This document shows positions 2-21,296 of a stretch of DNA of 23,645 bases, piece after piece. Where the stretch lies: IMG/VR virus record IMGVR_UViG_3300030329_002885; one strand, written 5' to 3'. The position numbers and the translations under genes are program-made. Under the pieces are notes generated by a model. The model ran no database searches. It was not told where the DNA came from and saw only the letters and a program-made list of their open reading frames with translations. This DNA comes from an uncultured virus (IMG/VR IMGVR_UViG_3300030329_002885). Taxonomy: Duplodnaviria; Heunggongvirae; Uroviricota; Caudoviricetes; Crassvirales. Positions within the stretch are counted from its first letter, which is position 1. The number at the start of each line of letters is the position of its first letter.

Positions 2-3000
2 TCTAAAGAAGGTTTAGAATCTGCTTTAATAGGATTTTTAACTGGAGGTATTATGGGAGGTGGACAATCTGTTATAGGTAAAACATATGCAACTAGAAAA
101 AGTAATGCACAAGCTCTTACGGATTTAATAAATAGTGGAATATTTGACAAAGCAAATCAAAGATATGGTACAGCTGAAGCTTCATCTGCAGTTCTTAAAA
201 GAATGCATGATGCTCTTCAAAAAGGCGATATAAAAAAATTTAAAGATGAGCAGTATAAGCTTATACAATATCAAGCATTAGAAGCATTAGAAAGAGGTGG
301 GTTTGATGTTATGGTTCAAAAACTAGAAGACTCTAAAAATTTATCTGAAACAGAATTTATGGAGTATTATGGTTATCCGCAAGAAGACAACTCTGGTAAA
401 CCATTAACTTTAAAAGATTCTACTGATAAATCTCAAGACGAAGTTATAGATGGAGTTATAGAAAAGTTAAAACGATTTGAACAAACATATGATACTGTAA
501 ATGAAAGATTTCCTTTGCAAGACAAAACATCAGGACTTCCTAGATTGTTAATGTCTACAGAAGAAAGAGCAGCAGAAGATGCCGTTTACAATAAACAAGT
601 AAACTTAAGAAATAATCTTATATTTTACGGGTCTGAAATTAAAGATAGGAATAGAAGAATGGATGCTATTACTAATCAAATGCAAGACACTTTAAACGAC
701 TCTTTACAAGGCAGTGCTTATGCTGGTACAGGACCTCAACTTGATGTGCATGGAGCATTACAAGAACAAAGACCATCTTTTAAAGGAATAGACCTACTTA
801 AAGATGAGACTGGCGAAGTTGAGCCAGCTACTGAATATGACGCTACTAAACAATTACAAGATACTGGAAAAAAACTTCAACAAATAGCAGATAACTTAAG
901 ATTAACAGACCCTATAGCAGCAGATAAATTTACACAGCAGGCAAATGATTATATGGAGTTATTAAGAGATAACAATACTGCTCTTGACGCTTATAATAAA
1001 TTGTCTTCAGATAGCTATGCTCAAGAGCAAATGCAAAAAGAAATTGAAGAAAGAGAAGCTATAGCTAAACAAAATAAAATAGACAAAGCTGTAACAGAAG
1101 CTGTTGAGAACGCTGAAGCTCCACAAGACTTTGACAATGTAGATTTAGAAAACGCATCTCCAGAAATTGCTGCTAAAGGTAAAGCAAAATTAATGGAACT
1201 TCGAGATGCTGAGTTTGCTGAGTATAGAAAATACATGGCAGAAGATCCTAACGAAACTGATAATGAAAAATTAGAACGTTTAAAAAAGATAGACAAAACT
1301 AAATTAACTTCTATTCAAAAAGCAGGTTTAGCAAAAGCTATAAATACTTTAGAAAATAAACTTAATGAAGATCCAGATACAGCAGAAGAGCTTCCATCTA
1401 GAGAAGAAGATAATGTAATGGAAGAAGCATTCCAACCAGATAATGTTGGAGGTGTAGAGTTAATTAGTGAAGACGGTAGAAAGTTTCAAGTTGATGGAGT
1501 AGAGTTACACAACAGAGAACTTAATCCTTTAGATGCAATAGTTAGAACTAGAGCAGGAAGAATAAAACAAATTAACTTAACAGATAAAAACGGCAAACGT
1601 AAAATTATATGGAAACAACCTACGGTTGATGCATTAGCTTATGCTATTTTAATGTCTGAACAACTTAAGCTTGACACAGAGCAAGGTAAAATTAGAGAAG
1701 AGTTATTAGATAGAAAAGAAGTTGTTTTAGAAGAAGTAGAAAAAGAAATGGGTCGTAAGACTGGGCACGGAGCTAAAACATCTGAAAGTTTAAGACAAGA
1801 AATATACTCTTTAGAATTAGGATTACAAGAAATTTTAGATGCTTATGATGAATTAAGGACTAGTTATATACAAGATGCTGGAGCTACTAAAGAAGAACTT
1901 AAAAACGACCCAGACCTTACAGAGCTAAAGAAAAAAATAAAATCATTAAAATTACAAATATCTCATAGAAGAAGAATATTACAAACTAGAGCTGAAGACT
2001 CTACTCCTACAGATCCAGAAATTTTAAGAGTAGAAAATAAAGCTAACGCTGCAATTGATAATTATAATGTAGAACTTTCTGAATCTGAAAGTACTATAAA
2101 GCAGCTTCAAGATGAAATAGAGTATCAAGAAAGTCTTTTAGAAGGATATAAACAAGCAGACGATTTAGATTCTTGGAGGCAAGCAACTAATTCAATTAAA
2201 AATAAAGAAGCATTAATACTAAAAGAACAAGCTAAGCAGGAAAAGCTTAAACATAAAATAAATTACGAACAAGCAAAATTAAAACGTTTACAAGATGCAA
2301 AAGACAACGACCCTAACAAAAATGCAGAGCCGTCTGAACAAACAGCTGCAGAACAAACTGAAGGACCAATCGATGCAAGAGAAGATAAAAATATTGGAGA
2401 AAGCGTTGAAGGACAGGAACCTGTTATAGACGAAGAAACTGCAGAAGAAGAGTTTAGCAATGAAGAAAAAGCTACTCAAAAACAAGCTACTATAACTCAG
2501 AATAGTAATTCTAATACTGCTGAAGACCCAGGACAAAGTGAGCCAGGAACTCCTAAAGAAGGTATTATATTTGGATTACCTGAAGGTATGACTGAACAAG
2601 ACTTAATGGAAGAAGGATCTACTACTGACCTTGGTAGTTTGGTAGGGCCTTCTACAACAGCTTCTCCAGAGGAAAATACAAGTGTTGAAGATTTAGACGT
2701 AAAAGCTGCTAACATAGATAAAGTACAAAAAGTAGGTGAAGATACTTATGACAAAAGAGCTAAGCGTAGAATAGTAGTAGATGAGTCAGGTAACCCTTCT
2801 AGATATACTCCTGATATGAGTAACGGGCAAATAATAAAAATTAATCAAGACTTATTATTGTCTCCAGATATTGTTGGAACAACAGTTACATTTGAATTAA
2901 GAACTAATGATTACTTTACAGAAAGAGTAGCAGAAGAAGGTTTGGAAAATGCTTGGAAATACGTGCCTATATATTATAAAATAGGCAATGAATATGTAGG

Positions 3001-4072
3001 TAAATTAGAAGAGTCTGACTCTCCTCAAAGAAGAGCCCTTGCAAATAAACTTGAAAATGGAGAAATAGTAACAACTAGAATATCTAAAGTAGTCAGTGGT
3101 CCAAGAAATGTTAATCATGCAATTACAGAAGATGGTACTCCTTTCTTTATACATCCTGAAGCAACCTTTGGTAAAAACGAAGTTATACTAGGAGTAGCTA
3201 ATGGATATACTCAACAATTTGAATTAGGTGATGTTGACTCTAGATTAGATCAAGGCGATGCAGACGCAATAGTTACAGGTGTAGGACAAACACCTCTTGG
3301 TAAAATAGGCTCTGGTCAAGTGGTAGCTGTAATTAGACCTAAAAATAATCCACAAGGAGATGCTAGAGTTACTCCTTTAAGTACTGCTAACTTAAGCGCT
3401 GAAGCTCAAGAAGGCGTTATGAATCTTCTTAAACAAGGAGAATTAGATAGAGCCAGTCAGATTGTAGCTAATTCTAATATATCTGAAGGAGTAGACACAA
3501 ATCCAAACTTTATAGAATTTGCTGAATTTCCAGATGGTAGTAAAGCTATTGTATATAAAAGCCCATCTAAAGGAAATTTAATTAGAATTAAAGAAGGCCA
3601 GTTACAAAAAGCTTTAAATGGAGAGCCACATAAATATGACTTTGTAAAAGTTAATGGAGATAAATACCAAGTATATACTCCACAAGATAGTATAGTTGAT
3701 ATTAAAAAAGATTTAACTAACTTTATGGCGGATAAAAAATATCATGTAAATGTTAATTTAGTGAATATGGCTACAGACTATACTAACCCTATTAATGGTA
3801 AAGAGTATAAATCTACTGCAGACGCTCCGTTTGGCTATCAGCAATATCTGTTTGATAATGGAAATGCTGGAGGTAGAATTCTTTCAACTGATGTAGTTAA
3901 ATTAGGGGAGAGTTTATTTAATAATCCTCAAGTTACTTTTGAAGGTATAGACAAAGATATGGTAGGAGAAACAGAAGTAGAACTTAAAATAGAAAGAAAC
4001 GATGCTCAAATTATAGATGATATAGCAGATGAGGATATTAGCTTTGATGATAAAACCAATGAGTGTAAATAA
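2..4072 (+). CDS. Giant virion cargo/ejection protein of crAss-like phage (5'-truncated; acidic, coiled-coil rich)
   Basis: The frame is open from base 2 (SKEGLESALIGFLTGGIMGG...), so the ATG at 53 is probably internal. Long E/K/Q-rich helical segments and an acidic low-complexity linker (~2290-2700). Lies directly upstream of the virion RNAP, as for crAss-like cargo genes. Ends ...NECK-TAA. Confidence 0.7.
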   Translation, partial: SKEGLESALIGFLTGGIMGGGQSVIGKTYATRKSNAQALTDLINSGIFDKANQRYGTAEASSAVLKRMHDALQKGDIKKFKDEQYKLIQYQALEALERGGFDVMVQKLEDSKNLSETEFMEYYGYPQEDNSGKPLTLKDSTDKSQDEVIDGVIEKLKRFEQTYDTVNERFPLQDKTSGLPRLLMSTEERAAEDAVYNKQVNLRNNLIFYGSEIKDRNRRMDAITNQMQDTLNDSLQGSAYAGTGPQLDVHGALQEQRPSFKGIDLLKDETGEVEPATEYDATKQLQDTGKKLQQIADNLRLTDPIAADKFTQQANDYMELLRDNNTALDAYNKLSSDSYAQEQMQKEIEEREAIAKQNKIDKAVTEAVENAEAPQDFDNVDLENASPEIAAKGKAKLMELRDAEFAEYRKYMAEDPNETDNEKLERLKKIDKTKLTSIQKAGLAKAINTLENKLNEDPDTAEELPSREEDNVMEEAFQPDNVGGVELISEDGRKFQVDGVELHNRELNPLDAIVRTRAGRIKQINLTDKNGKRKIIWKQPTVDALAYAILMSEQLKLDTEQGKIREELLDRKEVVLEEVEKEMGRKTGHGAKTSESLRQEIYSLELGLQEILDAYDELRTSYIQDAGATKEELKNDPDLTELKKKIKSLKLQISHRRRILQTRAEDSTPTDPEILRVENKANAAIDNYNVELSESESTIKQLQDEIEYQESLLEGYKQADDLDSWRQATNSIKNKEALILKEQAKQEKLKHKINYEQAKLKRLQDAKDNDPNKNAEPSEQTAAEQTEGPIDAREDKNIGESVEGQEPVIDEETAEEEFSNEEKATQKQATITQNSNSNTAEDPGQSEPGTPKEGIIFGLPEGMTEQDLMEEGSTTDLGSLVGPSTTASPEENTSVEDLDVKAANIDKVQKVGEDTYDKRAKRRIVVDESGNPSRYTPDMSNGQIIKINQDLLLSPDIVGTTVTFELRTNDYFTERVAEEGLENAWKYVPIYYKIGNEYVGKLEESDSPQRRALANKLENGEIVTTRISKVVSGPRNVNHAITEDGTPFFIHPEATFGKNEVILGVANGYTQQFELGDVDSRLDQGDADAIVTGVGQTPLGKIGSGQVVAVIRPKNNPQGDARVTPLSTANLSAEAQEGVMNLLKQGELDRASQIVANSNISEGVDTNPNFIEFAEFPDGSKAIVYKSPSKGNLIRIKEGQLQKALNGEPHKYDFVKVNGDKYQVYTPQDSIVDIKKDLTNFMADKKYHVNVNLVNMATDYTNPINGKEYKSTADAPFGYQQYLFDNGNAGGRILSTDVVKLGESLFNNPQVTFEGIDKDMVGETEVELKIERNDAQIIDDIADEDISFDDKTNECK

Positions 4073-4082
4073 AAATATATAG

Positions 4083-7000
4083 ATGGCTTGTAAATTTAAA
4101 AGAGATAAAGAAGATAATATAATAGGGGCCTTAGCTCCTAATGAAAAAGACTCTATATTATTCAATGAGCTTAAAAGAATAACTGGTAATATTAATACTG
4201 CTAAAAAAGAATATGACCGTGTTAGATCTGAAGCTTTTAAAAAATGGTTTGGAGTTGATTGGGAAAAATCAAACTTAGCTGATCAAGCAATTGCAGGAAT
4301 GTATGTAGACAAGAATGGAGAGCCTATAGTATTTGCTGACAAAGGTCGTTTTGTTTATATGAACAAAGACGGTAAATTTTTAGAAGTTCCTAATGCTAAG
4401 ATTACAAAACATACTAGTGGAATGACTTTGCAAGTAGAAAACAATTTAACATCTATTGCTTTTCAGTTTGTAAAAGAAGGAATGAATAAGAAAAACTTTG
4501 ATCCTACTAGTTTTTTTAACCCTACTAAAGATAAACCAGGCAAAGGATTATTAGCTGATGAATTATTAATGCAAGCTTTTAGAGGTATTCCACAAAGCAA
4601 CAGACAGCAAGCTAGAGAATTATTTGCAATATATAAAAAGTCTGGATTTGACGCTATGTTAAAAGCTATGCCTGCAGGAGTTACATTTAATCCTGCTAAA
4701 AATTTAGGTAGATCCTTTTTATCTATATATGATCAATGGAATGATGTAATAAATCCTATCACAGGAAACGTAGATAGAGTTGGATGGAGAACTAGAATTC
4801 AAAATAGACTAGATGAATACGGGTATAAACTTATAGATGATAAAGGAGAGATTGCAGAAATAGATGAAACACCTGTTCGTATTCATGATATATCTAGATT
4901 ACAAGAAGACCCTTTAAGTAAGCTATCTAGAGAAAGTAGATCTATATTAAGTAATATTCCTTCTACTGTAAAAGTTTATGGGTATACAGTAGATATGGAT
5001 ATGGCAGATGTTTATAGCGTTGTGTCAGAAGCTACTGTGGGACAGACAGCTTGGAATGGTATGGTATCACAACTTGAAAATATTGTTAGGTATAAACCTA
5101 CTATGCAACCTATACTTGATAAATTAAAAAAAGCAACAGTAGAAGAAAAAGCTGCACTATTTGCAAACTTTGCAAATTCTTATAAAAACTTTTTATTGTT
5201 TAAAGCTACTAGACAAGAGCTTTACAATCAACAATTAGGGGCAGTTGAAAATTTTGTGCAAACTCAAATGTTTAGCTCAAATCAAAGTAATATAGCTTCA
5301 AAGGCATTGCAGCAGTGGAATGTAAATTCTAAAGAATATGATACTTCAAATCCTAGAGCATTATATAAAGTAGTTGCTGATGAAACTACAGGAGAACCAA
5401 AGCTTGTTATATCTAAACAAAAAAAGAATGCTATAAATAACGCATTTAATAAAATTGAAAAATCTATTAGAAAAAATAGAGGACAACAGCAATCAGTGCC
5501 AGAAGAAGCTGTTGAAGGTTTAGGAGAATTTTTATGGGAGTTAGGCATTGATTATGGTAAAACTAAAGAAGAGTCTATAGATAATTTAAAAAGATATTTT
5601 GAGTTAGGGGATATTAGAAAAGATAATATTATAACAGGTATGCCTTTGTTTATAGAGTTTATGCAAGGAAAAGGTAAGAAACCAAGACCATTAAGACTTT
5701 TAAAGGATAATATTAATAAAGAAAATCTTGTAGATATTTATGAAGACCAAAGATCTATAATAAGAAGACTATCTACAATAAGTCATTTATTTGAAGATCA
5801 ACCATTTGGCTCTTTTATTAGTGGAACAGGTAAACAGTATTGGCCTATTAATCAGCCTACACCTTTAGACGAGTTTGCACAAAACATGAAATCAGGAACT
5901 AAAGTAGATTCTATATTATTAGAAATGTTAAAAGATCCTTTTTATAGTCCAGGTAATGATATAAAGCATACTTCTGTATTGCTACAAGCTTTACATGCAG
6001 CTAATGGAAAAGCTAGAAAAGGTCTTGAAGTAGAGACTGTAGATGCATATAAAAATCCTAATGAGTCTGTAGCAACATCAGACTATTCAAATCAATCAAA
6101 TAGAACTTCTTTAATTGTAAGGTTAAATGCATATGCTAATAATGCTAATGATGATTTTATGAAGATAGCTATTCCTACACAAGCAGATAGAAAAAGATTA
6201 GACTTTGTTACTATTCCTAGAACAGAAAGATTATTAGAGTTTGGGGTAAATGTTACAAGGAAAGATATAATAGAAGGACTTATATTACAAGATCTTGCAA
6301 GAATAGCACGTGCTCAACAGCAAATTAAAGATGCTATAGATAATGAAGATAATAGCCAATTAATTGAAGGTTATCACTATAGAAAAGGATCTAATCCTAC
6401 AGCAGGAAATGGATCTGTATTTGACATGACTCAAATTTTTAATTTAGAAGACAGTAAAATTACTAAAGATATAAAAATGTCTGATGAGGTAAACAGATAT
6501 TTATCTGGAGATGAATTATATTTAATTTCTCCAGATGGCAAAGTGTTTCAAAACATGTTAGATAAAAAAGTAGCTGAGATAGAAGGAAAACTTGAAGAGT
6601 ATACTAATGAGTTAAATCAAACTATTAAAGATTATAAAATAAATCTTCCTACAGATGTACACTCTAAAATGTCTATGAAAAAAGATTTTATTAAAGACTT
6701 TGTTTTTAATGATTTTGTAGGTAGAATTGAGATTGCTAAGTTAACTAGAGGAGGATTTGCTTTTGCAAAAGATACAGAAGATTTTTATAAACGTGCTGGT
6801 CTTTTAAATACTCCAGGTACTAAGTTATTCTTAAAAAGTATGACTGAAGAAGGAGGAAGTCAGTATGGTATGATGGATACTTACAATGAAATAACTATAA
6901 GAGATTTTGATTTTAACAATACAGAAGCTGCTGGATTTGTAGCTAACAATATATACAATACTTTAGTAGACCAGGGTATGGTTCCTGAAGATGCTAAAAC

Positions 7001-10000
7001 TATAGCAGATAAATACAGAAGTGTAGAAAAAACAGATGCTCAAGGTTTTATTAGTATAGATATGTACAGAGGTATTATGATGGGTATGGGTCAATGGGAT
7101 ATGAAGTTAGATGAAGCTGCATACAAAAGAGAAAAAGCAGGTCTAGGATATAATAGGCCTATCTATCCAATAAAACCTTATCATGAACAATTATCATCTG
7201 ATAATGGTATTATGACAATGTATATGAATAAAAATTCATATATGGTTATTACTCAAGAGTTAGCAAATAATATGCCAGACTTAGAAAACTTAAGGCAAAA
7301 AATGCGTTCTGATAATATACATGTTATTAATGTAGATAGCGCAACAAAAGGAGCTAGAAAAAATGTTTTAGATTTACAAGCAGGCCAGTCTTTAGATGAT
7401 GCAACTATTGTAAAAATGGATTCGTCTAAATTAAGACTACCTCAAATTACACCTAGATCTGAAAAAAATGAAATTACATTTTCAAGACAGATTAGAAAAA
7501 ATATTATAACAAATCTAGATAGAAGAGAAGGCAGTTTATATACACTACAAGGTGAGCCTATAAGTGGTGAAGATTTATATATGCTATATCAAGAAACAAT
7601 AGCAACTAATTTAAAAGAAGATACTAAAAATCTTAATAAAGAATTAAAACTTACAGAATTAGAAAACATTCCACAAGGCACTTTAGAATATAGAGATGCT
7701 AAATTAGAACATTTAAAAGTTTTAAGGGATAGAATGAATGATCAAATTAAAGATAGAGACTTACCTCAAAACTATTTAAATGGACTAAACATTGTACCTA
7801 ATGGCCCATATGACTGGACCTTTGAAGTTCCTTTATCGTTTCCTAATTACCAAGCAAAGTTTGAGCAAATATTTTTTAGTATTTATAATAATGCAATTTT
7901 TAATCAAAAGATTAAAGGTGTAGATGCTGTACAAATTGCAGAGCTAGGAGGATCGGGCGCAGACTCTATGAATGAGTTAAAATTTTATAATATTGATGAA
8001 GACTCTCTTATAGCAGAAGTTAAAGTAAAAGCCAGTACATTAGGTATAGATCCTGCAACTCCTATAGAAGAAGTAAATCCTAATCTACTTACTATGGTAG
8101 GATATAGAATGCCTAACCAAGGTAAAAATTCAAGCTTAGTTATGAGGGTAAAAGAGTTTTTACCAGAGTCTCATAAAAAAGCTATTATGGTCCCTGGAGC
8201 AATAACTGTACAACAAGGAGCCGATTTTGATATTGATAAATTAAACTTAATATTACCTCAAACAAAAATGGTTGATGGTAAACTAGAAAGAATACAACCA
8301 GACTATAAAAAAGATCTTTCTAAAATGAGTCGAGAAGAAAGAGATAATATTGTATTAGATATTTTTGAATCTATATTAACTGATCCTAGACATTTAGAAG
8401 AGTCTGTTACACCTTTAGACTCAGACAGATTGCCAGATCTTGCAGCTGATGTATCTGAGTTAAGTAGTAGTGTTGATTATAATAATCCGTTAGCAGAGAT
8501 TAAAATGGAAGATAGAAATAAAGCAGGTATTGCTTTAAGAGGTTTATGGGCTAATCAGTTAGCAGGTAGAAATGTAGCACAAACTTCAGGTAATTTAACA
8601 GTTAGTCAAGACTACGCCCCTATAATAAACTATGGAGATTTTCAAACAACGTTTAGTATAATAGGACAAACTAGAGAATTAAATCCGGTTACAGGGCAAT
8701 TTACTGGACCATATACAGATTATAATATATCTATGTATTTGTCAGCAGCAGTAGATGCAGCAAAAGATGCTATTCAAATTGACATAAATGATAATATATA
8801 TACACTGCCTACAGCAGGGCTAATGTTGAGTACAGGAGTTCCTGTAGAAGATGTTGTATATTTCTTATCTCAACCTGGTATAAAAGCTGTTATCGAAAAA
8901 GCAAAACTAGAAGACACACCTCCATCTAAACTAAGTGGTTTAATTGACAAAGCTATTTTAGAGTTTAATCCTAAATTTGACAAACTTAGTTTTTCTACAA
9001 CTAGAGCTATGAATTCAGGAGAATTAAGAAACCTAGACGGAGCAGATCCTATAAAACAAGCAGAGTATTTAAGTAACTTTAAACACATGTTTACTGCAGG
9101 AAGACAATTACAATCTGTATATAGAATAATTACACCTGACAACTTAGATAATATAAATGAAATGTCTTCAATATCTAGCTGGTTAGAAACAGAAGAAAGA
9201 TATTTAACAGGTGTAGAGTCAAATATAATTGAAGGAGCAGAACAATTTGTTAGAGAGAATGCATCTAATATCGATAATCCATTAAATGCAATAGCTTTAA
9301 ATTATAGAAACATATTTGATACAATGCTAAGTGCTGCAGAAAATGTAGGATTTATAAATAATAGGCCTGCATTTTATATGTTTAAAAAACAACTACAAAG
9401 AGAACTAGGTAAAGTTTCATTTACAGCTGATCAACATAAATTTATAGATAAAACTTTATTTTTAGATTTAATGACAAGACCAGAAAGTCCTTTTGTTCAA
9501 AGCAAACTTATTTCAAAAGATACTTTTAACGCTTTATATACTAATCCATCTAAAAATATTATTACAAGACTAGCTAGCATGAAAGCTAAATATCCTAAAT
9601 TAGCTAGAAGTCCTTTTATATCTATGCTTCATGCGGATGACCACAACCAAAGAAAAAACACAGGAGTGTATTTAATTAAAATGGATACCTTACTAGAGTC
9701 TTCTTCAAACACTAAAAATATTTTATCTAATAACTTATTACAAATGGTTACTGAACCTCAAAGGTTTGCTAATGATCCTAATAATAAAAATGAAATAAAA
9801 GAAATTGTTACTTTTGCTAAACTATTAGTAGCTAATCAAATTTATACAAAAGGTTTTGCTTTAGGAGCCGGTACATATATAGATATAATACCTTCAGACT
9901 TTTTTACTACTAATATGTTGTTTCCTAAATATGAGTCTCCAGTTGACTACTATAAAAGAGCATCTCAAGGAACTTTAAATAGTAATTATTTTGTAGATTC

Positions 10001-10487
10001 AAATCTTATTAATAGTTTTGTAAGAAACTTTGGAACATTAAAACCGGGAGGATCTAGCATGCTTAATTTTGTTAAATGGAACAAAGGTTTTGAAAGTAAA
10101 GATGGTTTAAGAAAAAATGTAATAAGCTTTACACCAAAAGATTCAAGAGTTTGGAATGGAAATTCAGGATATGCGGGATACTTTATATCATATCCTCCAT
10201 CAGCAGATCCTATTATATTTGTAAGAAGTGCTGTAGATTCTGCAGGGGTTGTATTTTATACTCAACTACAAACAGCTGGATTACCTGGTAAATTAAATGA
10301 GTTTGGAGTAACAGGTCCTAATGAAAAGTCTTTAACTTCTAAAGAAACTGATGCAAGAACCTTTAACTCTCCTAATGAAGTTATATTTGATGAATTTTTT
10401 GGACAATCTAGATTTACTATGCCTAACATTCCAGAGTATGTATCTAAACCAGTGCTTGATAAAATAGATAAAATCTGTAAAATATAA
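4083..10487 (+). CDS. Virion-packaged DNA-dependent RNA polymerase, crAss-like (phi14:2 gp66-type, two-barrel)
   Basis: 2134 aa. Catalytic DxDxD variant GADFDIDKL (DFDID at 8223-8237) preceded by GYRMPNQG. Also TDAQGFI and AAVDAAKD motifs that I recognise from crAss-like RNAPs. Size and context match phi14:2-type virion RNAP. Confidence 0.9.
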   Translation: MACKFKRDKEDNIIGALAPNEKDSILFNELKRITGNINTAKKEYDRVRSEAFKKWFGVDWEKSNLADQAIAGMYVDKNGEPIVFADKGRFVYMNKDGKFLEVPNAKITKHTSGMTLQVENNLTSIAFQFVKEGMNKKNFDPTSFFNPTKDKPGKGLLADELLMQAFRGIPQSNRQQARELFAIYKKSGFDAMLKAMPAGVTFNPAKNLGRSFLSIYDQWNDVINPITGNVDRVGWRTRIQNRLDEYGYKLIDDKGEIAEIDETPVRIHDISRLQEDPLSKLSRESRSILSNIPSTVKVYGYTVDMDMADVYSVVSEATVGQTAWNGMVSQLENIVRYKPTMQPILDKLKKATVEEKAALFANFANSYKNFLLFKATRQELYNQQLGAVENFVQTQMFSSNQSNIASKALQQWNVNSKEYDTSNPRALYKVVADETTGEPKLVISKQKKNAINNAFNKIEKSIRKNRGQQQSVPEEAVEGLGEFLWELGIDYGKTKEESIDNLKRYFELGDIRKDNIITGMPLFIEFMQGKGKKPRPLRLLKDNINKENLVDIYEDQRSIIRRLSTISHLFEDQPFGSFISGTGKQYWPINQPTPLDEFAQNMKSGTKVDSILLEMLKDPFYSPGNDIKHTSVLLQALHAANGKARKGLEVETVDAYKNPNESVATSDYSNQSNRTSLIVRLNAYANNANDDFMKIAIPTQADRKRLDFVTIPRTERLLEFGVNVTRKDIIEGLILQDLARIARAQQQIKDAIDNEDNSQLIEGYHYRKGSNPTAGNGSVFDMTQIFNLEDSKITKDIKMSDEVNRYLSGDELYLISPDGKVFQNMLDKKVAEIEGKLEEYTNELNQTIKDYKINLPTDVHSKMSMKKDFIKDFVFNDFVGRIEIAKLTRGGFAFAKDTEDFYKRAGLLNTPGTKLFLKSMTEEGGSQYGMMDTYNEITIRDFDFNNTEAAGFVANNIYNTLVDQGMVPEDAKTIADKYRSVEKTDAQGFISIDMYRGIMMGMGQWDMKLDEAAYKREKAGLGYNRPIYPIKPYHEQLSSDNGIMTMYMNKNSYMVITQELANNMPDLENLRQKMRSDNIHVINVDSATKGARKNVLDLQAGQSLDDATIVKMDSSKLRLPQITPRSEKNEITFSRQIRKNIITNLDRREGSLYTLQGEPISGEDLYMLYQETIATNLKEDTKNLNKELKLTELENIPQGTLEYRDAKLEHLKVLRDRMNDQIKDRDLPQNYLNGLNIVPNGPYDWTFEVPLSFPNYQAKFEQIFFSIYNNAIFNQKIKGVDAVQIAELGGSGADSMNELKFYNIDEDSLIAEVKVKASTLGIDPATPIEEVNPNLLTMVGYRMPNQGKNSSLVMRVKEFLPESHKKAIMVPGAITVQQGADFDIDKLNLILPQTKMVDGKLERIQPDYKKDLSKMSREERDNIVLDIFESILTDPRHLEESVTPLDSDRLPDLAADVSELSSSVDYNNPLAEIKMEDRNKAGIALRGLWANQLAGRNVAQTSGNLTVSQDYAPIINYGDFQTTFSIIGQTRELNPVTGQFTGPYTDYNISMYLSAAVDAAKDAIQIDINDNIYTLPTAGLMLSTGVPVEDVVYFLSQPGIKAVIEKAKLEDTPPSKLSGLIDKAILEFNPKFDKLSFSTTRAMNSGELRNLDGADPIKQAEYLSNFKHMFTAGRQLQSVYRIITPDNLDNINEMSSISSWLETEERYLTGVESNIIEGAEQFVRENASNIDNPLNAIALNYRNIFDTMLSAAENVGFINNRPAFYMFKKQLQRELGKVSFTADQHKFIDKTLFLDLMTRPESPFVQSKLISKDTFNALYTNPSKNIITRLASMKAKYPKLARSPFISMLHADDHNQRKNTGVYLIKMDTLLESSSNTKNILSNNLLQMVTEPQRFANDPNNKNEIKEIVTFAKLLVANQIYTKGFALGAGTYIDIIPSDFFTTNMLFPKYESPVDYYKRASQGTLNSNYFVDSNLINSFVRNFGTLKPGGSSMLNFVKWNKGFESKDGLRKNVISFTPKDSRVWNGNSGYAGYFISYPPSADPIIFVRSAVDSAGVVFYTQLQTAGLPGKLNEFGVTGPNEKSLTSKETDARTFNSPNEVIFDEFFGQSRFTMPNIPEYVSKPVLDKIDKICKI

Positions 10488-10497
10488 AAACTAATAT

Positions 10498-13400
10498 ATG
10501 GGATGTAAATATTATAAAAATGGAGTAGAAAGCAAGCTATATACTGAGCTATTTGGCTATATGGATAATACTGCTCCAGAAAAAAAATCTGCAGAAGCGG
10601 TATATAAAATTTTAAAATCAAATGGAATAGCTACAAGAAGAGGAGGTAGTATATTTTTAATACAACCTAATGTAGAAAACAGCTTAAGAGAAATTAATAA
10701 TATAAATGCTAGATACCCAGGCCTTCTTGATACTAAGTATATTAAGATGACACAAGAAACATATTTTTCTAAGTCAGCAGAGTTACATGCTTTAAATATT
10801 AATGAAGATGTATTACAACAAATTGCTGCAGAAAAAGATGCTAATGCGGATTTACAGTATAGAAATCAAAATGATATTGATACTTATACTAGAACAATAG
10901 CAGGATCTGGAAGAGAATTTCAAGATGATATAAGATTATCAGAAGAAGTTAGAAGAGAAAACACAAGTGAAAGCCGTTTCTCAAATATGCAAAGAGAAGA
11001 ACAGGCAATTGTAGAGAAAAAAGTAAATCATTTAAAAGAGGCATTTGCTAAAGCGGGAGTTCAAGTAGATGTTGTTTATAATTCTGAGACAGAATCGTTA
11101 GGTTCTATAGAGCGTTCTGATATAGAAAATAACCCTCTAATTACATTTAATCCTAATAAAACTACTGAAGATACAGTATATCATGAATTTGGTCATGCTT
11201 ATATAGATATGCTAGGGATTAATGATCCTGTAGTTGCCAAAGCAATTGAAGAATTAAGAGGTACAGATTTATACTTACAAGTACAAGATAGGTATCCAGA
11301 GTTATCAGGAGAAATGTTAGATAAAGAAGTACTAGCTACAGCTATTGGAATAGAAGGAGCTAAGATTACAAGGAAGCAGCCTACTGCTATACAAAGAATA
11401 GTTAATAGGATTATGAGGGCATTTTCTAAAATGCTTAATAAATTAGGACTTAATACAAATCCTAATACTGCTGCTATAATAGCTCAAGAAATGTTTGCGC
11501 AAGAGTTAAGAGCAGAAAACATGGTTAATCCTATAAGTAGTTATACTCAGTATAGTAAAGAAAGCAGAGATAAACAAAAATTATTAGATATTACAAATGA
11601 TTTAAGAATTAAAGTAAGAGCAGATATATCAGATGTAAAAAAAATGCCTCTTGAGCAACAAGAAAAACTACTCCCTAAACTAGAAAGATTACAAGCTTCA
11701 TTATATAAAATAGATAGAGTAGAAGATTTTGTTTCTTTTGTTGATGCTGTATCTTTTCAAATGGCTGAGGCAAGAAAACAATTTGATCAAATTATAGATT
11801 TAAAAGATGAAAAAGGTAATATAAATTATAAAGAGCAAGCTACTTATAAAAATCTCAACATTATGTATGAGCTAAAAACTAAGTTAGACTCTTTAGATGT
11901 TTTAAAGTCTATTAAAACATTAATGCGTAAAAAGAAAAAAGATGATAGAGTTCTTAGTGTAGGGGCCTTTGAAACACTTGAAGAAAAATTAAATGCGGTA
12001 TTAGAAGAGGTTGATGTATTACAAGAAGATTTTAATGATGAGATAATACCTATTATAGCAGAGTCATTACTACAATTTCATAATAAAAATATAGATAAAG
12101 ATTTACAAGCTATTATAGATAATATTCAAGAAAATGCTAAGAACGGAACTCCAAGAAGAGCATTAAATTTTAATGAAGTAAAAAGAACATCTGAATTTAA
12201 AAAATTAGAAAAAGATCTTAATGATAAAAAAATAGATCAGGAAACTTATAATAAAAAGTTAGCAGATTTACAAATAGAAAGCATCAAAAATAAAATGATG
12301 ACAGGAAGAAGTGCTCTAGTAAAACAACTAAGAGAAGCTCAAAAAGATAAATCTGGATTTTCTTATTTAATGGACCCAATGATATATTCAAGTGAAGCTT
12401 CATTACAAATGTTTACTAAAGCTGTAGATGAAGCTAATATTAAATCTAATGATGAAACGTTAGATTTTAAATACAGCTTAAAAGAAAAGTATGATAAAAT
12501 GGCTGCAGGGCAAAATGAAGCAGATGTTGAAACTTTAAATGATCCCTTTTTAGAAGAGATAACAATGGATGTTAGAGATAATGATGGTCAAACTAAAACA
12601 ATTAAAGTTTTATCTTTAGTACAGCCTTTAGCAGTAGATAAATATTACTCTGATCAAAGAGCAGAATATAAAAGACTTGCAGAAAAATATAATAAACCAC
12701 AAAGAAAAGATTATGATGATAATGAAGATCATAGAACAGCTTTAAGTAAATGGTATAATAGTAAACAGGGTAAAAATTATACTGTAGATATAACAGTTTG
12801 GTTAAATGAAAATACAGAACCGGTTGAAGGGTGGCAAGATATAAGGGCAAGTATTAATCAACAAATAAAAACTGCTCAAGGTATTATAAATAAAGCTACA
12901 TCAGAAGAGGTTAAAAACATGCAAGCTATTAAAATTAAAAATTTAAGAAAAGTATTAGCTACAAACATGTTAGGTAAAAAACCAAGAGGAGAATGGGTTA
13001 AACCTAAAGCTTCTAAATATACTAATCCTAAGTATGCAAAAATACAGGCAGATCCTAGATTAAAAGAATATTATGATTTTGTTTTAGAAGAGTTCCAAAA
13101 AGGACATAAAATGGTAGGTGTTAATAGAATGGAAAAAAATAGTTGGGATAATATTTCATATCTAATGCCGTCTGTTAGAAAAGAAGGTCTTGATAGAATA
13201 AAAGAGCAAGGATTTGTTAGTGCAGGTAGAGATTTACTAGCAGATAATTTTACTATAGTTGAAACTGATGATCACATGGCAGTTTATGATGATGTTTCTG
13301 GAGAATTAAAAAGAAATGTTCCTGTAAGATATACAAATCTTGTAGAGTCTAAAGATGTATCTAAAGACATTGCTAGTAGCCTATATAGGTTTAGACATAT

Positions 13401-14964
13401 GGCTCATAATTTTAAAGCTAAATCTGAAATTGTAGGACAGGTTATGCTATTTAGAGATATAATAAAAAATAGAGGAACTTTAGAAGTTAATCCTCAAGGT
13501 ATGGGCTATATAAGTGCTTATGCAAAACAAATAGGAATTAATTTACCTATTTTAAAACCGGGAGAGTCTTATACATTTAAACACTTAGAAGAGTGGGTTA
13601 ATATGGTTATGTTTGGAGAAACTTCTTATAAAACTAATGTTGGGTTATTTGGTAAAACAATTAATTTAGAAAAAACAACTGGAACTATAAATCAATTTGT
13701 AGCATTAAATACATTATCATTTAATATGTTACAGGGTGGAAATCAGTATATCTTAGATAACTTGTCTTTAATGCAAGAAGGTATAGCAGGTCAATTTGTT
13801 AGTAAATCAGACTTAGCTTGGGCTACTCAAAAATATTGGGGAGAAGGTGCAGCTATAAGTGATATGGGTAAATTTACTCCAGATACTAAATTAGGTAAAG
13901 CGATGGAATTGTTTGATGCATTAGTAGAGTTTACAGATAGAGAAGGTAATAGATTAGTAGGATCTAAATTAAGAAAAGCTTTAGATACCGGTAATCTTAT
14001 GGTAGTACAGCAAGGAGTAGAACATCAGCTAGCAGCTAAAAGAATGTTAGCCTTAATGAAAAATTTAGAAGGCAAGTTAAAAGATAAAGATGGAAATGTT
14101 ATAATGAAAGACGGTAAACCGGCTAATCTGTATGACATGTTAGAAATAGATAAAAAGACAGGTAAAATGTCTGTAAGTAAAGAGGTAGCTAATTTTAATA
14201 AATCTGATTTTATCCATTTATTAAGGGGCCTTGGTAGAAGAACAAACCAAACTAAAGGAAGATTTGACTCACCAATACTTGCTAAATCTTGGTATGGAAA
14301 ACTACTTATGTTATTCCGTAGCTGGGCTGTTCCTGGTATTAGAAGAAGATATGGACATGGAGGATTTACAGGATCTACTATACATACAGATGAAGAATTA
14401 GGAGCTGTAACTCAAGGTATGTATGTATCGTTTTTTAATTTACTATCAGAATCTTTTCAAGATGGGGTAAAATCTCCATTAGGTGTGTATTCACGTATGA
14501 CTAAAATGGAACAAGAAAATGTTAAAAGGACAGTAACTGAAATGGCTGCACTAGCATCTGCAATGGCCCTTGTAGCAGCGTTGTCTAATTTAGATGATGA
14601 TGAAGAAACTTATATTTCTAACTTTATGTTATATCAAGCTAAAAGATATGAAACAGAAATATTACAATGGACGCCTATATTTGGGACTAGAGAAGCATTT
14701 AGAATTCTAAAGTCTCCTTCTGCAACATTTAGGCCTATTGAACAAGGAGCTAGTCTAATAGAGCAGTTATTTGTTGAATTATATAACGGTATAGGATTAC
14801 CTATTGATGATAAAAGAATTTACTATCAAAGAAAAACAGGTAGATTTAATAAAGGTGATAGAAAAATATGGAAAGATATTGAAGATTTATTACCTATATT
14901 AAGAGGTCTTAGAACAACACAAACTCCAAAAGAAAAATATAAGTGGTTTACAACACTAGATTAA
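10498..14964 (+). CDS. Giant virion cargo protein with N-terminal zincin-like metallopeptidase domain and C-terminal hydrophobic helix
   Basis: 1488 aa. HEFGH at 11182-11196 with downstream KEVLATAIG (candidate third Zn ligand). Hydrophobic MAALASAMALVAAL (14542-14583) followed by acidic DDDEE. Adjacent to the RNAP gene. Confidence 0.7.
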   Translation: MGCKYYKNGVESKLYTELFGYMDNTAPEKKSAEAVYKILKSNGIATRRGGSIFLIQPNVENSLREINNINARYPGLLDTKYIKMTQETYFSKSAELHALNINEDVLQQIAAEKDANADLQYRNQNDIDTYTRTIAGSGREFQDDIRLSEEVRRENTSESRFSNMQREEQAIVEKKVNHLKEAFAKAGVQVDVVYNSETESLGSIERSDIENNPLITFNPNKTTEDTVYHEFGHAYIDMLGINDPVVAKAIEELRGTDLYLQVQDRYPELSGEMLDKEVLATAIGIEGAKITRKQPTAIQRIVNRIMRAFSKMLNKLGLNTNPNTAAIIAQEMFAQELRAENMVNPISSYTQYSKESRDKQKLLDITNDLRIKVRADISDVKKMPLEQQEKLLPKLERLQASLYKIDRVEDFVSFVDAVSFQMAEARKQFDQIIDLKDEKGNINYKEQATYKNLNIMYELKTKLDSLDVLKSIKTLMRKKKKDDRVLSVGAFETLEEKLNAVLEEVDVLQEDFNDEIIPIIAESLLQFHNKNIDKDLQAIIDNIQENAKNGTPRRALNFNEVKRTSEFKKLEKDLNDKKIDQETYNKKLADLQIESIKNKMMTGRSALVKQLREAQKDKSGFSYLMDPMIYSSEASLQMFTKAVDEANIKSNDETLDFKYSLKEKYDKMAAGQNEADVETLNDPFLEEITMDVRDNDGQTKTIKVLSLVQPLAVDKYYSDQRAEYKRLAEKYNKPQRKDYDDNEDHRTALSKWYNSKQGKNYTVDITVWLNENTEPVEGWQDIRASINQQIKTAQGIINKATSEEVKNMQAIKIKNLRKVLATNMLGKKPRGEWVKPKASKYTNPKYAKIQADPRLKEYYDFVLEEFQKGHKMVGVNRMEKNSWDNISYLMPSVRKEGLDRIKEQGFVSAGRDLLADNFTIVETDDHMAVYDDVSGELKRNVPVRYTNLVESKDVSKDIASSLYRFRHMAHNFKAKSEIVGQVMLFRDIIKNRGTLEVNPQGMGYISAYAKQIGINLPILKPGESYTFKHLEEWVNMVMFGETSYKTNVGLFGKTINLEKTTGTINQFVALNTLSFNMLQGGNQYILDNLSLMQEGIAGQFVSKSDLAWATQKYWGEGAAISDMGKFTPDTKLGKAMELFDALVEFTDREGNRLVGSKLRKALDTGNLMVVQQGVEHQLAAKRMLALMKNLEGKLKDKDGNVIMKDGKPANLYDMLEIDKKTGKMSVSKEVANFNKSDFIHLLRGLGRRTNQTKGRFDSPILAKSWYGKLLMLFRSWAVPGIRRRYGHGGFTGSTIHTDEELGAVTQGMYVSFFNLLSESFQDGVKSPLGVYSRMTKMEQENVKRTVTEMAALASAMALVAALSNLDDDEETYISNFMLYQAKRYETEILQWTPIFGTREAFRILKSPSATFRPIEQGASLIEQLFVELYNGIGLPIDDKRIYYQRKTGRFNKGDRKIWKDIEDLLPILRGLRTTQTPKEKYKWFTTLD

Positions 14965-15015: not shown

Positions 15016-15396
15016 TCACATTGACATTTTAAGTAGTAATAAATAACCAATTAAATCATCTATTGTATCCTCAGTCTCATCGTTAATTCCTCTATTACTT
15101 ATTCTTGCTAATTTATCATCTATTCTAGCACATATAGCTTCTGTAGCATTTAATTTACTAAATACATTAGTAGGATTAAGCGCTGTATTACCATATGCTG
15201 CATTTTTTTCTTTTAATAGCTCAACTATTTCTTTAACTTCTTTATCTAATCTATTTGAAAAACTATTTGGATCTTTATTTCTATCTACATCCCAATAATA
15301 TTTATTATGTTCTGGAGATATACTATAAGATTTATTAAATTCCATACCATCAGGTACAGACATTTTAATATCTGTATTCTTTTTATCTTTTTTCAT
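15016..15396 (-). CDS. DUF1599 / nucleotide-modification-associated domain (MazG-like all-alpha) protein
   Basis: Motifs KNAAYGN, RIDDKLARI and EDTIDDLIGY match the family pattern (KNxDYG...RxxDKxxR...DTxxDLxGY). Confidence 0.75.
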   Translation of the reverse strand: MKKDKKNTDIKMSVPDGMEFNKSYSISPEHNKYYWDVDRNKDPNSFSNRLDKEVKEIVELLKEKNAAYGNTALNPTNVFSKLNATEAICARIDDKLARISNRGINDETEDTIDDLIGYLLLLKMSM

Positions 15397-20430: not shown

Positions 20431-20442
20431 GTTTAATTGATT
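20428..20442 (-). repeat. Leader/translation-initiation repeat, copy upstream of the VWA gene
   Basis: Minus strand AATCAATTAAAC-ATG; exact reverse complement of 16989-17003. Confidence 0.7.
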
Positions 20443-21296
20443 TAAAATATATACCTAATTGTATTCCAAGGTATAATTTGGTTATGTAATTCTTTAAATT
20501 GACTAATATACTCAGACTTCATTCCAAGTTTATATCTTATATTTTCTCCACCATACTGTGATTTTTTAACTTCTTGTTTATTTAACACCCATAAATCTAT
20601 TTCTGTTTTAGGGTGTCTTTGTAAATTTATAGTATGCTTTTTAAAGTTATGTGTAAGAAATATACATTCTGATAATACTTTATCTTTATATTTTACATAG
20701 TCATTCATCATAGTAAATAAATCATAGTAGTCTTCAAGCCATCCATCATACACTATAATAGGACTGTAATTGACGTGTACGTCATATCCAGCATCTATAA
20801 ATGTATTAATAGCTTTAATTCTATCTATAATTTTAGATGTGTGGGGTTCATGTAAATCTGACTTATGTTGTGGCATAAGGCTAAATCTTATACGTATTTT
20901 ACCTTGCGGGTTAAATTTTGTAAGAATAGGATTTACATATTTTGTTGCAAAACTGCCCATAGCAATAGGATGATCTCGAAAGAATTCAAATATCTTTTCC
21001 CATTGATGGTGTTTTGCATGCAGAGCAAAGTCTTCGTTACAGCTTATGTCGTATGTTGTATACTCTGCGTGTGTCTGATTAGGTTTATCTACAGGTGTAA
21101 AGTATGCATGGTTATTTATAGCTGTAAGTATATCTCCTGTGTTAGTTGCTACAGTAAGACCTTTATCTTTATGTCTTTTCATGTAGCAATAAGAACAGTT
21201 ATATAAACAACCATAACCAAAACTAGGACTTATAAAATCTGTAGATCTACCTGAAGGTCTAATAAGCATAGACTTTCTAGTGATCTTTTCTATCAT
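20442..21296 (-). CDS. splB: Spore photoproduct lyase family radical SAM protein (SplB-like)
   Basis: CxxxCxxC motif CLYNCSYC (21186-21209). YDISCNED corresponds to the SPL H-donor Cys region. Also FATKY, RIRFSL and GYDVHVNYSPII motifs, and a C-terminal YGG..IRY. Confidence 0.82.
   Translation of the reverse strand: MIEKITRKSMLIRPSGRSTDFISPSFGYGCLYNCSYCYMKRHKDKGLTVATNTGDILTAINNHAYFTPVDKPNQTHAEYTTYDISCNEDFALHAKHHQWEKIFEFFRDHPIAMGSFATKYVNPILTKFNPQGKIRIRFSLMPQHKSDLHEPHTSKIIDRIKAINTFIDAGYDVHVNYSPIIVYDGWLEDYYDLFTMMNDYVKYKDKVLSECIFLTHNFKKHTINLQRHPKTEIDLWVLNKQEVKKSQYGGENIRYKLGMKSEYISQFKELHNQIIPWNTIRYIF

Follow-up and report, generated by a model that had tools for sequence, protein, structure and literature searches.

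The stretch of DNA analysed here (hereafter the window: 23,645 nucleotides (nt), IMG/VR virus record IMGVR_UViG_3300030329_002885, from an uncultured member of the Crassvirales) carries three adjacent giant genes on its plus strand. The first encodes protein 1 (2..4072), an upstream giant cargo protein and the counterpart of phi14:2 gp67 and crAss001 gp47, of which 1,356 amino acids (aa) are visible, its 5′ end lying beyond the window. A 10-nt spacer (4073..4082) separates it from a virion-type RNA polymerase (RNAP) of 2,134 aa and of the phi14:2 gp66 family (4083..10487), and a second 10-nt spacer (10488..10497) precedes protein 3 (10498..14964), the counterpart of phi14:2 gp65, which has 1,488 aa and ends TTLD*. 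In their 4,978 visible residues the three proteins contain four cysteines (Cys), at positions -2, 3, -3 and 3 from the termini that face each other across the spacers (negative positions count back from the C-terminus). These are the sole Cys of visible protein 1 (…NECK*, TGT codon at 4064..4066), residue 3 of the RNAP (MACK…, 4089..4091), residue C2132 of the RNAP at position -3 (…KICKI*, 10476..10478) and residue 3 of protein 3 (MGCK…, 10504..10506). The RNAP and protein 3 have no Cys beyond these, and the C-terminus of protein 3 is Cys-free. Translation of the window's open reading frames (ORFs) bears out the count, positions and coordinates given in an earlier reading of this DNA made from its letters alone (the sequence-only reading).

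A profile of 38 RNAP homologues searched against the PDB gave one match, 6VR4 chain A (E 3.2e-68). A tblastn search with the RNAP reached 91 phage records, crAss001 among them, all below 60% identity, with phi14:2 g066 at 22.5% (E 3e-13); judged by RNAP, the named phages closest to the window belong to Crassvirales, at about 22-27% identity over the matched core. Within the catalytic DFDID motif (residues 1381-1385, 8223..8237), residues D1381, F1382, D1383 and D1385 are invariant in the alignment of the 38 homologues. By profile and alignment, the window RNAP is a distant relative of the crAss-like virion RNA polymerase of the phi14:2 gp66 family. It is flanked by two giant companion genes, protein 1 upstream and protein 3 downstream, the latter bearing in its alignment an HEFGH sequence, a zincin-type (HExxH) metalloprotease motif (residues 229-233, 11182..11196), in agreement with the Zincin-like domain given for phi14:2 gp65 in the accessible text of the Drobysheva preprint. 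Searches of PHROGs and Pfam matched no family in any of the three giant proteins, and a PDB sequence search returned nothing for protein 1 and, for protein 3, weak syntaxin-like helical matches alone. The capsid, portal and terminase genes of Crassvirales lie outside this window. The phi14:2 proteins gp67-gp66-gp65 are found in virions by mass spectrometry according to their record annotation, and the parts seen of the crAss001 structural study likewise describe gp47, gp49 and gp50 as detected in virions by mass spectrometry (PMC10172136). The three genes are the RNA-polymerase cargo block of a crAss-like phage.

The four-Cys pattern is far beyond chance. Proteins encoded on the minus strand of the window use Cys normally, as the sequence-only reading had also said, with 37 Cys in 2,722 aa over ten ORFs (1.36%, and 0.8-2.0% per ORF), compared with 0.080% in the three giant proteins. 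The minus-strand rate predicts 67.7 Cys for these three proteins, and the probability of four or fewer is 2.5e-24; were four Cys placed at random, the probability that all would fall within three residues of a visible terminus is 5.3e-11. Across the wider set of loci described below, Cys frequency is 0.093% in the cargo block and 1.13% in other ORFs. The part of protein 1 beyond the window can be taken from a 98% identical database protein (P0241), which gives a full length of 1,794 aa, starts MPDTPIVTYK and has one Cys in total, with a Cys-free N-terminus.

The terminal Cys are retained in distant homologues. Among the best 120 of 125 RNAP homologues, which range from 99% to 23% identity, 107 carry Cys at both ends (within the first 8 and last 10 residues), and 97 carry exactly those two. 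Nine of the other 13 were set against the window RNAP: eight are fragments, beginning or stopping inside it, and one is without the last ~46 residues. Two of the remaining four (P0105 and P0110) look fused, judged from their termini alone. For protein 3, an N-terminal Cys is present in 113 of the 120 homologues listed and a C-terminal Cys in one; 102 contain the N-terminal Cys and no other. The seven without an N-terminal Cys have later or different starts (P0127, for example, opens near residue 14 of the usual head), and from these starts alone we read them as shortened gene calls. Protein 1 has a single Cys at -2 to -5, and no other, in 34 of 35 database homologues, the 35th being an 881-aa fragment. 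In the alignments, RNAP C3 and C2132 are invariant across 38 homologues (the C2132 column in both RNAP alignments, A1 and A2), as is protein 3 C3 across 40.

The surroundings of these Cys vary. Over 64 lineages dereplicated at 70% identity, the terminal Cys codons are TGT in 111 cases and TGC in 25, the N-terminal Cys lies at residue 2-7 (mode 3) and the C-terminal Cys at -1 to -9. The 'CK' dipeptide that the sequence-only reading had pointed to is present at all four window sites but is a habit of this clade, the residue after Cys being variable in the 64 lineages. Of 68 Cys-headed N-termini, 57 have Ala, Ser or Gly as their second residue; these residues favour removal of the initiator Met by methionine aminopeptidase. 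In the window itself, each of the four Cys codons is TGT with AAA next to it, and the TGTAAA repeats stand 25 and 28 nt apart, each with a +1 shift of frame, as might be expected of a nucleotide or translation signal at which ribosome hopping, splicing or reinitiation fuses the frames. We give this explanation next to no credence and rejected it: TGTAAA is common in the window, with 48 copies, relatives use TGC and other next codons, the genes of relatives are separated by anything from -1 to about 500 nt, and protein 1 can stand on the other strand.

If facing termini belong together, Cys should follow the gene boundaries, and the co-variation with gene splits and fusions that the sequence-only reading had put forward as a check is indeed found; we take it as the decisive evidence. 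A contig scan with the RNAP alignment matched 590 stretches, 495 of them encoding relatives. The best 80 were kept, which represent 79 distinct loci, locus L001 of the scan being already in the set; the 83 modules studied comprise the window, 80 viral-contig loci, phi14:2 and crAss001. Their cargo block occurs as three genes, as a protein 1-RNAP fusion (3,600-5,209 aa) followed by protein 3, as one gene, and with protein 1 inverted. Scoring a junction by Cys in the last 10 residues upstream and the first 8 residues downstream, we find both Cys at 88 of 91 junctions, and at 67 of 70 after dereplication to the 64 lineages. Among 215 other ORFs of at least 150 aa from the same loci, Cys falls in those terminal segments in 6.0% and 9.8% of cases and in both in 0.6%, which gives a binomial p of ~1e-145 for the junction pairs.

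Each of the three misses can be explained. In L058 the true start is preceded by an earlier ATG; beginning at Met26 yields MAKSC, as in its relative L077. L060 is a frameshifted fused gene without both Cys: its homology to the fused sister L071 is continuous, and the RNAP frame is open ahead of the upstream stop. In L049 the Cys stands at -24. The odd ending in L007 is likewise a frameshift; the true end, …NKKC*, lies directly ahead of protein 3, and the apparent 629-nt gap is an artefact. In public records, then, the RNAP frame is broken by a frameshift in L007 (~15322-15349), L060 (~8192-8219) and IAS virus gp055/gp056 (L092, 12315-12325), and these could be sequencing errors or real. Some loci are also affected by the genetic code: cr4_1 (L084) has in-frame stops under table 11, and L061, L066, L073, L075, L080 and L081 have no long ORF in table 11 and yield the usual two-gene arrangement once TAG is decoded as Gln.

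Counting over whole chains shows how closely Cys number tracks gene number. In 35 complete chains (at least 4,900 aa), no outer end carries a Cys (0 of 35 at either terminus). All eight one-gene chains (5,005-5,711 aa) have no Cys at all; two-gene chains (n = 14) have a total of two Cys in nine cases, three in four and seven in one; and three-gene chains (n = 13) have four in eight cases, five in two, and seven, nine and two in one each, the chain with two being L060, in truth a two-gene chain. The numbers of N- and C-terminal Cys are equal within every chain. This bears on the idea that each terminal Cys acts singly, through acylation, attachment to a virion part or DNA, or redox sensing. Lone terminal Cys do occur, at -2, -8 or residue 5 and with no evident neighbouring partner, in some smaller upstream cargo proteins, namely p-crAssphage gp47 (L089), crAss002 gp30 (L090) and FpV4 gp30 (L091). 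Yet Cys acting singly would persist at outer ends and in fusions, and instead both vanish there, down to zero Cys in eight of eight polyproteins, and the equality of N- and C-terminal counts fits pairs. We regard single action as very improbable.

The outer ends have conserved features of another kind. The chain's free N-terminus (P0241-P0275; L006, L009, L012, L014, L021, L028, L040 and L046) begins M-[ASP]-[ED] and often has …NP(L/I)T(G)… within its first 10-25 residues, and may serve as a leader or as a docking signal when the chain is packaged or exits. The free C-terminus carries a conserved K-[WF]-F (…EKYKWFTTLD, …KDKLSWFHLN), found at 14935-14961 in the window and in L017, L020, L022-L025 and L027; from this shared ending, the polyproteins end with the protein 3 module.

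The association between Cys and gene boundaries has arisen repeatedly. On a tree of the RNAP core from 64 representatives (quick search, LG+G4), changes between split and fused states number at least eight at the first junction and at least four at the second, and thus at least 12 in all. For the contrast test we avoided circularity by counting all Cys, from the chain start to the catalytic motif for one junction and from the motif to the end for the other. In independent pairs the Cys count follows the split in 7-8 of 8 comparisons at the first junction (median p 0.008) and in 4 of 4 at the second (p 0.125, four pairs being unable to reach 0.05), and the reverse is never seen at either.

A cut at a non-canonical site behaves in the same way. 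In L047 the RNAP is split ~270 aa ahead of the catalytic motif, at a point where its sister L057 is continuous, and the ends created there are …KKCE* and MACE…, so that a cut in a fresh position carries a Cys pair of its own. The ~940-nt insertion at this site brings a tail of 92 aa and a head of 59 aa, each tipped with Cys and both missing from L057, and between the split RNAP halves lies a 157-aa ferritin-like ORF (L047:9280-9753, plus strand; PF00210, E 2.7e-12). Both RNAPs also contain an intein with a LAGLIDADG homing endonuclease (Hom_end_hint, Hom_end and LAGLIDADG_3; L047:9764-14971, residues ~376-700; L057:2597-15724, residues ~3047-3345). Their internal Cys (4 of 4 in L047 and 6 of 6 in L057) all fall inside this intein, so the spliced proteins would retain terminal Cys alone. 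Some cuts may arrive as a ready-made cassette of Cys-tipped tail, passenger gene and Cys-tipped head, as in L047.

The same rule holds in named phages from several families: in the Steigviridae phi14:2, crAss001, cr85_1, cr111_1 and IAS virus; in the Suoliviridae cr4_1, cr50_1 and cr1_1; in the Intestiviridae p-crAssphage and crAss002; and in the crAss-like Flavobacterium phage FpV4. The blocks of phi14:2 (gp67-gp66-gp65) and crAss001 (gp47-gp50-gp49) are homologous to that of the window and have the same Cys pattern, although the RNAPs are about 22-27% identical over the matched core. In crAss001 the facing termini are CNS of gp47 with CITTNSTIEELAAK of gp50, and ICGANTLYEL of gp50 with CAIIPQVR of gp49. 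Gene arrangement differs between these phages. Protein 1 is on the opposite strand in crAss001, cr85_1 and IAS virus and still has its C-terminal Cys. In the Intestiviridae the order is permuted, the zincin protein coming first and ending …SFSCM*, the RNAP fusion coming next and starting MSCGN…, and the outer ends again being Cys-free; in crAss002 gp33 an internal MSCTPSN… start is hidden by the annotated start. The Cys pair is kept across intergenic gaps from -1 nt, an overlap, to about 500 nt. The opposite-strand protein 1, the permuted order, the variable gaps and the use of both TGT and TGC together place the signal in the protein, not in the DNA. The sequence-only reading had proposed a head-to-tail string in gene order: the pairing of facing termini stands, and gene order proves not to be essential, as the inverted protein 1 demonstrates.

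A further comparison is with the one-gene form. Single polyproteins with the same domains, treated in the Drobysheva preprint in the text available, have 5,005-5,711 aa against about 5,400 aa for the window proteins summed with full-length protein 1, and differ in having one gene and no Cys (8 of 8). The Cys-free polyproteins are a natural control, by which the Cys pairs are defined as substitutes for peptide bonds. On these comparative grounds we regard a functional pairing of the facing termini as almost certain.

An unrelated phage indicates what such a pair can be. The pre-ejectosome in virions of the cyanopodophage A4 (Anabaena phage A-4L) contains a disulfide between gp27 Cys1715 and gp26 Cys5, described from cryo-electron microscopy (cryo-EM) in the passages seen of that study (PNAS 2025, PMC12002296). 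In the A-4L genome, gp27 (1,717 aa) has its sole Cys at -3, and gp26 (1,114 aa), which starts 5 nt downstream, has Cys5 as its sole Cys; the A4 relatives Pf-WMP3 and Lsp-JY17 (23% identity) keep this terminal-Cys signature. A4 and the window thus share adjacent, co-directional genes for large packaged ejection proteins, the upstream one with a sole Cys near its C-terminus and the downstream one near its N-terminus: in the window, protein 1 at -2 and the RNAP at -3 are the upstream partners, and the RNAP and protein 3, each at residue 3, the downstream partners. The differences are that A4 belongs to the Saffermanviridae, has a genome of ~42 kb and no virion RNAP, and has a single junction. The window proteins have no detectable homology to A4 gp27 or gp26 (best blastp E 0.015 over 27 residues; nothing by phmmer), so the window is an analogue of A4, not a relative, and the signature can mean a real virion disulfide. 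The A4 paper, in the passages seen, treats the bond as a stabilising detail, and in these we found no tie to gene splitting or fusion and no general rule (PMC12002296). A different Cys arrangement is found in the A4-like peptidase-bearing ejection protein, whose sole two Cys form a CxxC ~20 residues from the C-terminus (A-4L gp28 1036/1039, L093; ORF27 975/978, L094 and L095).

We consider it likely that the terminal Cys pair is a disulfide, because of the chemistry of paired Cys, the purge of other Cys and the A4 precedent. The pairing evidence is silent on chemistry, and the thiols might be joined otherwise, by a bridging metal ion or by a redox-sensitive link such as a Lys-Cys bridge; Lys comes directly after 16 of the 68 N-terminal Cys and 25 of the 68 C-terminal ones. 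Such links are improbable, however, given that each terminus has one Cys with no conserved His, Asp, Glu or second Cys near it, that the flanks are variable and the position of the Cys ranges over residues 2-7 and over -1 to -9, and that the sole solved case with this signature, as described in the text seen, is a plain disulfide (PMC12002296). Split inteins resemble the present system in that two separately encoded halves are joined after translation with Cys at the junction. A split intein needs an N-part of ~100 aa, a C-part of ~35 aa and a Hint fold, whereas the Cys of the present system are within 1-9 residues of the chain ends and the window proteins have no Pfam domain. We rejected a split intein or trans-splicing on the absence of a Hint domain in the Pfam search and the Cys 2-3 residues from the chain ends; the extra tails in L047 look helical and do not resemble a Hint fold.

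Structure prediction gives a first view of the junctions. AlphaFold2 models based on shallow alignments were made of protein 3 residues 1-300 (from 11 sequences) and of the last 300 residues of the RNAP (from 8). In the former (mean pLDDT, the predicted local distance difference test score, 66.5), the first five residues are coil and bear the Cys, and directly behind them is a compact N-terminal 'head' domain (residues ~6-110, 10513..10827), mostly at pLDDT 77-93. In the latter (mean pLDDT 56.5), the last ~70 residues (10275..10484), with the Cys near the tip, have pLDDT 21-36 and no secondary structure, and the C-terminal tail of the RNAP is thus predicted to be flexible. Foldseek searches of the protein 3 N-terminal model against the PDB found nothing at E<=0.001, the best hits being weak zincin-type peptidase matches at 0.19. 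Downstream partners start with at least two head types, with motifs 'APNG..S.LF…FG.W…DENGEP' and 'CPN.N..EWK.L…G..NAY..W', which occur in tandem in L046, L061 and L066. Lineages differ in whether a given type heads the RNAP or protein 3, a distribution that, judged from sequence motifs, looks like domain shuffling within the block. Searching fused proteins with a profile of the type I head gave one clear internal copy (L018, 946-987) and one partial copy (L052), and aligning split with fused junctions revealed no clear head counterpart in L017 or L025.

These models bear on a reading in which the disulfides are real and act as static staples of a packed capsid core, an A4-like 'mortise-and-tenon' that stabilises the complex and its stoichiometry with no tow-line. 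In its favour, the text seen describes the A4 bond as lending further stability to a helix-in-cleft contact, within a core that is fixed and five-fold (PMC12002296), and in the model of protein 3 the Cys stands directly ahead of a compact domain. The flexibility predicted for the RNAP tail speaks against it, as do the strict C-to-N polarity, with Cys on 0 of 35 outer ends, and the way the joined pieces equal one polypeptide, both of which suit a linear thread better. Moreover, a disulfide cannot open in the particle, so linked proteins must exit linked whatever the original purpose of the bond. We think a purely static role unlikely, with perhaps a modest chance of being right.

We favour instead, as moderately probable, the reading that head-to-tail disulfides between proteins substitute for the peptide bond in split crassvirus cargo. 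Inside the particle, Cys(-2) of protein 1 would bond to Cys3 of the RNAP, and Cys(-3) of the RNAP to Cys3 of protein 3, turning separate products into one covalent head-to-tail chain that would replace the missing peptide bonds. The rest of the cargo proteins would be kept Cys-free, as ejected proteins of other phages are, leaving no alternative bond to form. The chain would hold the pieces together, in N-to-C order, through packaging and passage along the tail, and the reducing host cytoplasm would then separate them; a role in ordered threading through the tail, with opening by reduction in the host, is a reasonable conjecture. The pairing of the C-terminal Cys of one protein with the N-terminal Cys of the next, as the sequence-only reading had proposed, thus stands on comparative evidence (88 of 91 junctions, 0 of 35 outer ends, Cys-free fusions and independent changes), and its disulfide nature on chemistry and analogy with A4. 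Literature searches found no description of terminal Cys in crassvirus cargo, and the parts seen of the Drobysheva preprint (not its journal version), Bayfield 2023, Yutin 2021 and a 2023 Crassvirales review nowhere use a word that begins with 'cystein' and assign no disulfide to the cargo.

Several observations weigh against a disulfide chain. Particles assemble in a reducing cytoplasm, and the gut lineages live without oxygen. No such bond has so far been observed in the cargo of any crassvirus. Gut lineages have up to 21 internal RNAP Cys (L079), which are possible competitors for pairing. The choice of partner would have to be made with unconserved flanks around the C-terminal Cys, an RNAP tail predicted to be disordered and at least two interchangeable heads, and the two models, built from 8 and 11 sequences, are of low confidence. 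In the parts seen of the crAss001 cryo-EM study, gp47, gp49 and gp50 are not resolved and disulfides are named only in the tail and gp57 (PMC10172136); that crAss001 virions do hold structural disulfides we count on the other side, as support (PMC10172136). Finally, the Drobysheva preprint, in its accessible text, offers the guess that the single polyproteins are cleaved, and if they are, covalent continuity is unneeded at ejection in those phages.

The purge of internal Cys has a parallel that qualifies its interpretation. In N4-like phages the ejected proteins (N4 gp50 and DEV gp71/72/73) have 0.00075% Cys against 0.865% in the proteomes, as reported in the passages seen of one study (PMC11445570). 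There, an earlier suggestion is cited that relates this Cys loss to passage through a periplasm among disulfide-catalysing proteins, and the few Cys present, in unconserved regions or near the ends of truncated predictions, are put down to annotation or sequence errors (PMC11445570). N4 and the window thus have in common a giant virion RNAP and companions that cross tail and envelope and are depleted of Cys; N4 differs in having no conserved terminal Cys, no split and fused series and an unrelated type of RNAP, whereas the terminal Cys of the window are invariant. The sequence-only reading had attributed the loss of internal Cys to avoidance of mispairing: the purge is real, but with a parallel lacking terminal Cys, mispairing need not be its sole cause.

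Other features of these phages were also noted. In the window, a spore-photoproduct-lyase-like radical SAM protein (20442-21296, minus strand; PF20903, E 3.2e-26), with CxxxCxxC at residues 30-37, sits in the replication-side gene block. Thioredoxins are encoded in the early or replication region of cr111_1 (gp_23271, L087) and p-crAssphage (gp39 and gp37, L089). Some RNAPs carry extra enzyme domains (L052:8198-18532, residues 644-773; P0009 and P0011; P0111 and P0112), namely an ART-PolyVal ADP-ribosyltransferase, PF08719 (YbiA-like) and PF06414/PF13671 kinase-like domains.

Crassviruses are among the most abundant human gut viruses, and how about 700 kDa of RNAP cargo is delivered via a narrow tail is described as an open question in the parts seen of two studies (PMC10172136; PMC13434306). 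The Cys rule has a practical use in annotation: a terminal Cys pair marks a true gene boundary, and a boundary with no pair points to a frameshift, an intron or a wrong start. In this way the rule flagged L007, L058, L060, crAss002 gp33 and IAS gp055/056. A broader proposal, which we advance tentatively and put somewhat short of an even chance, is that giant ejected proteins travel as one covalent thread that can be cut into genes at many sites, a Cys pair at each cut re-joining the pieces after translation, the reducing host cytoplasm replacing a protease and the number of Cys being twice the number of cuts, as a general principle of podophage cargo. If head-to-tail disulfides do stand in for peptide bonds, the rule would be one seen across Crassvirales and independently in Saffermanviridae. 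A redox-cleavable chain would then explain the equal packing numbers of the three proteins and their fixed order and direction of exit, and how the cargo block can be written as one, two or three genes without functional loss.

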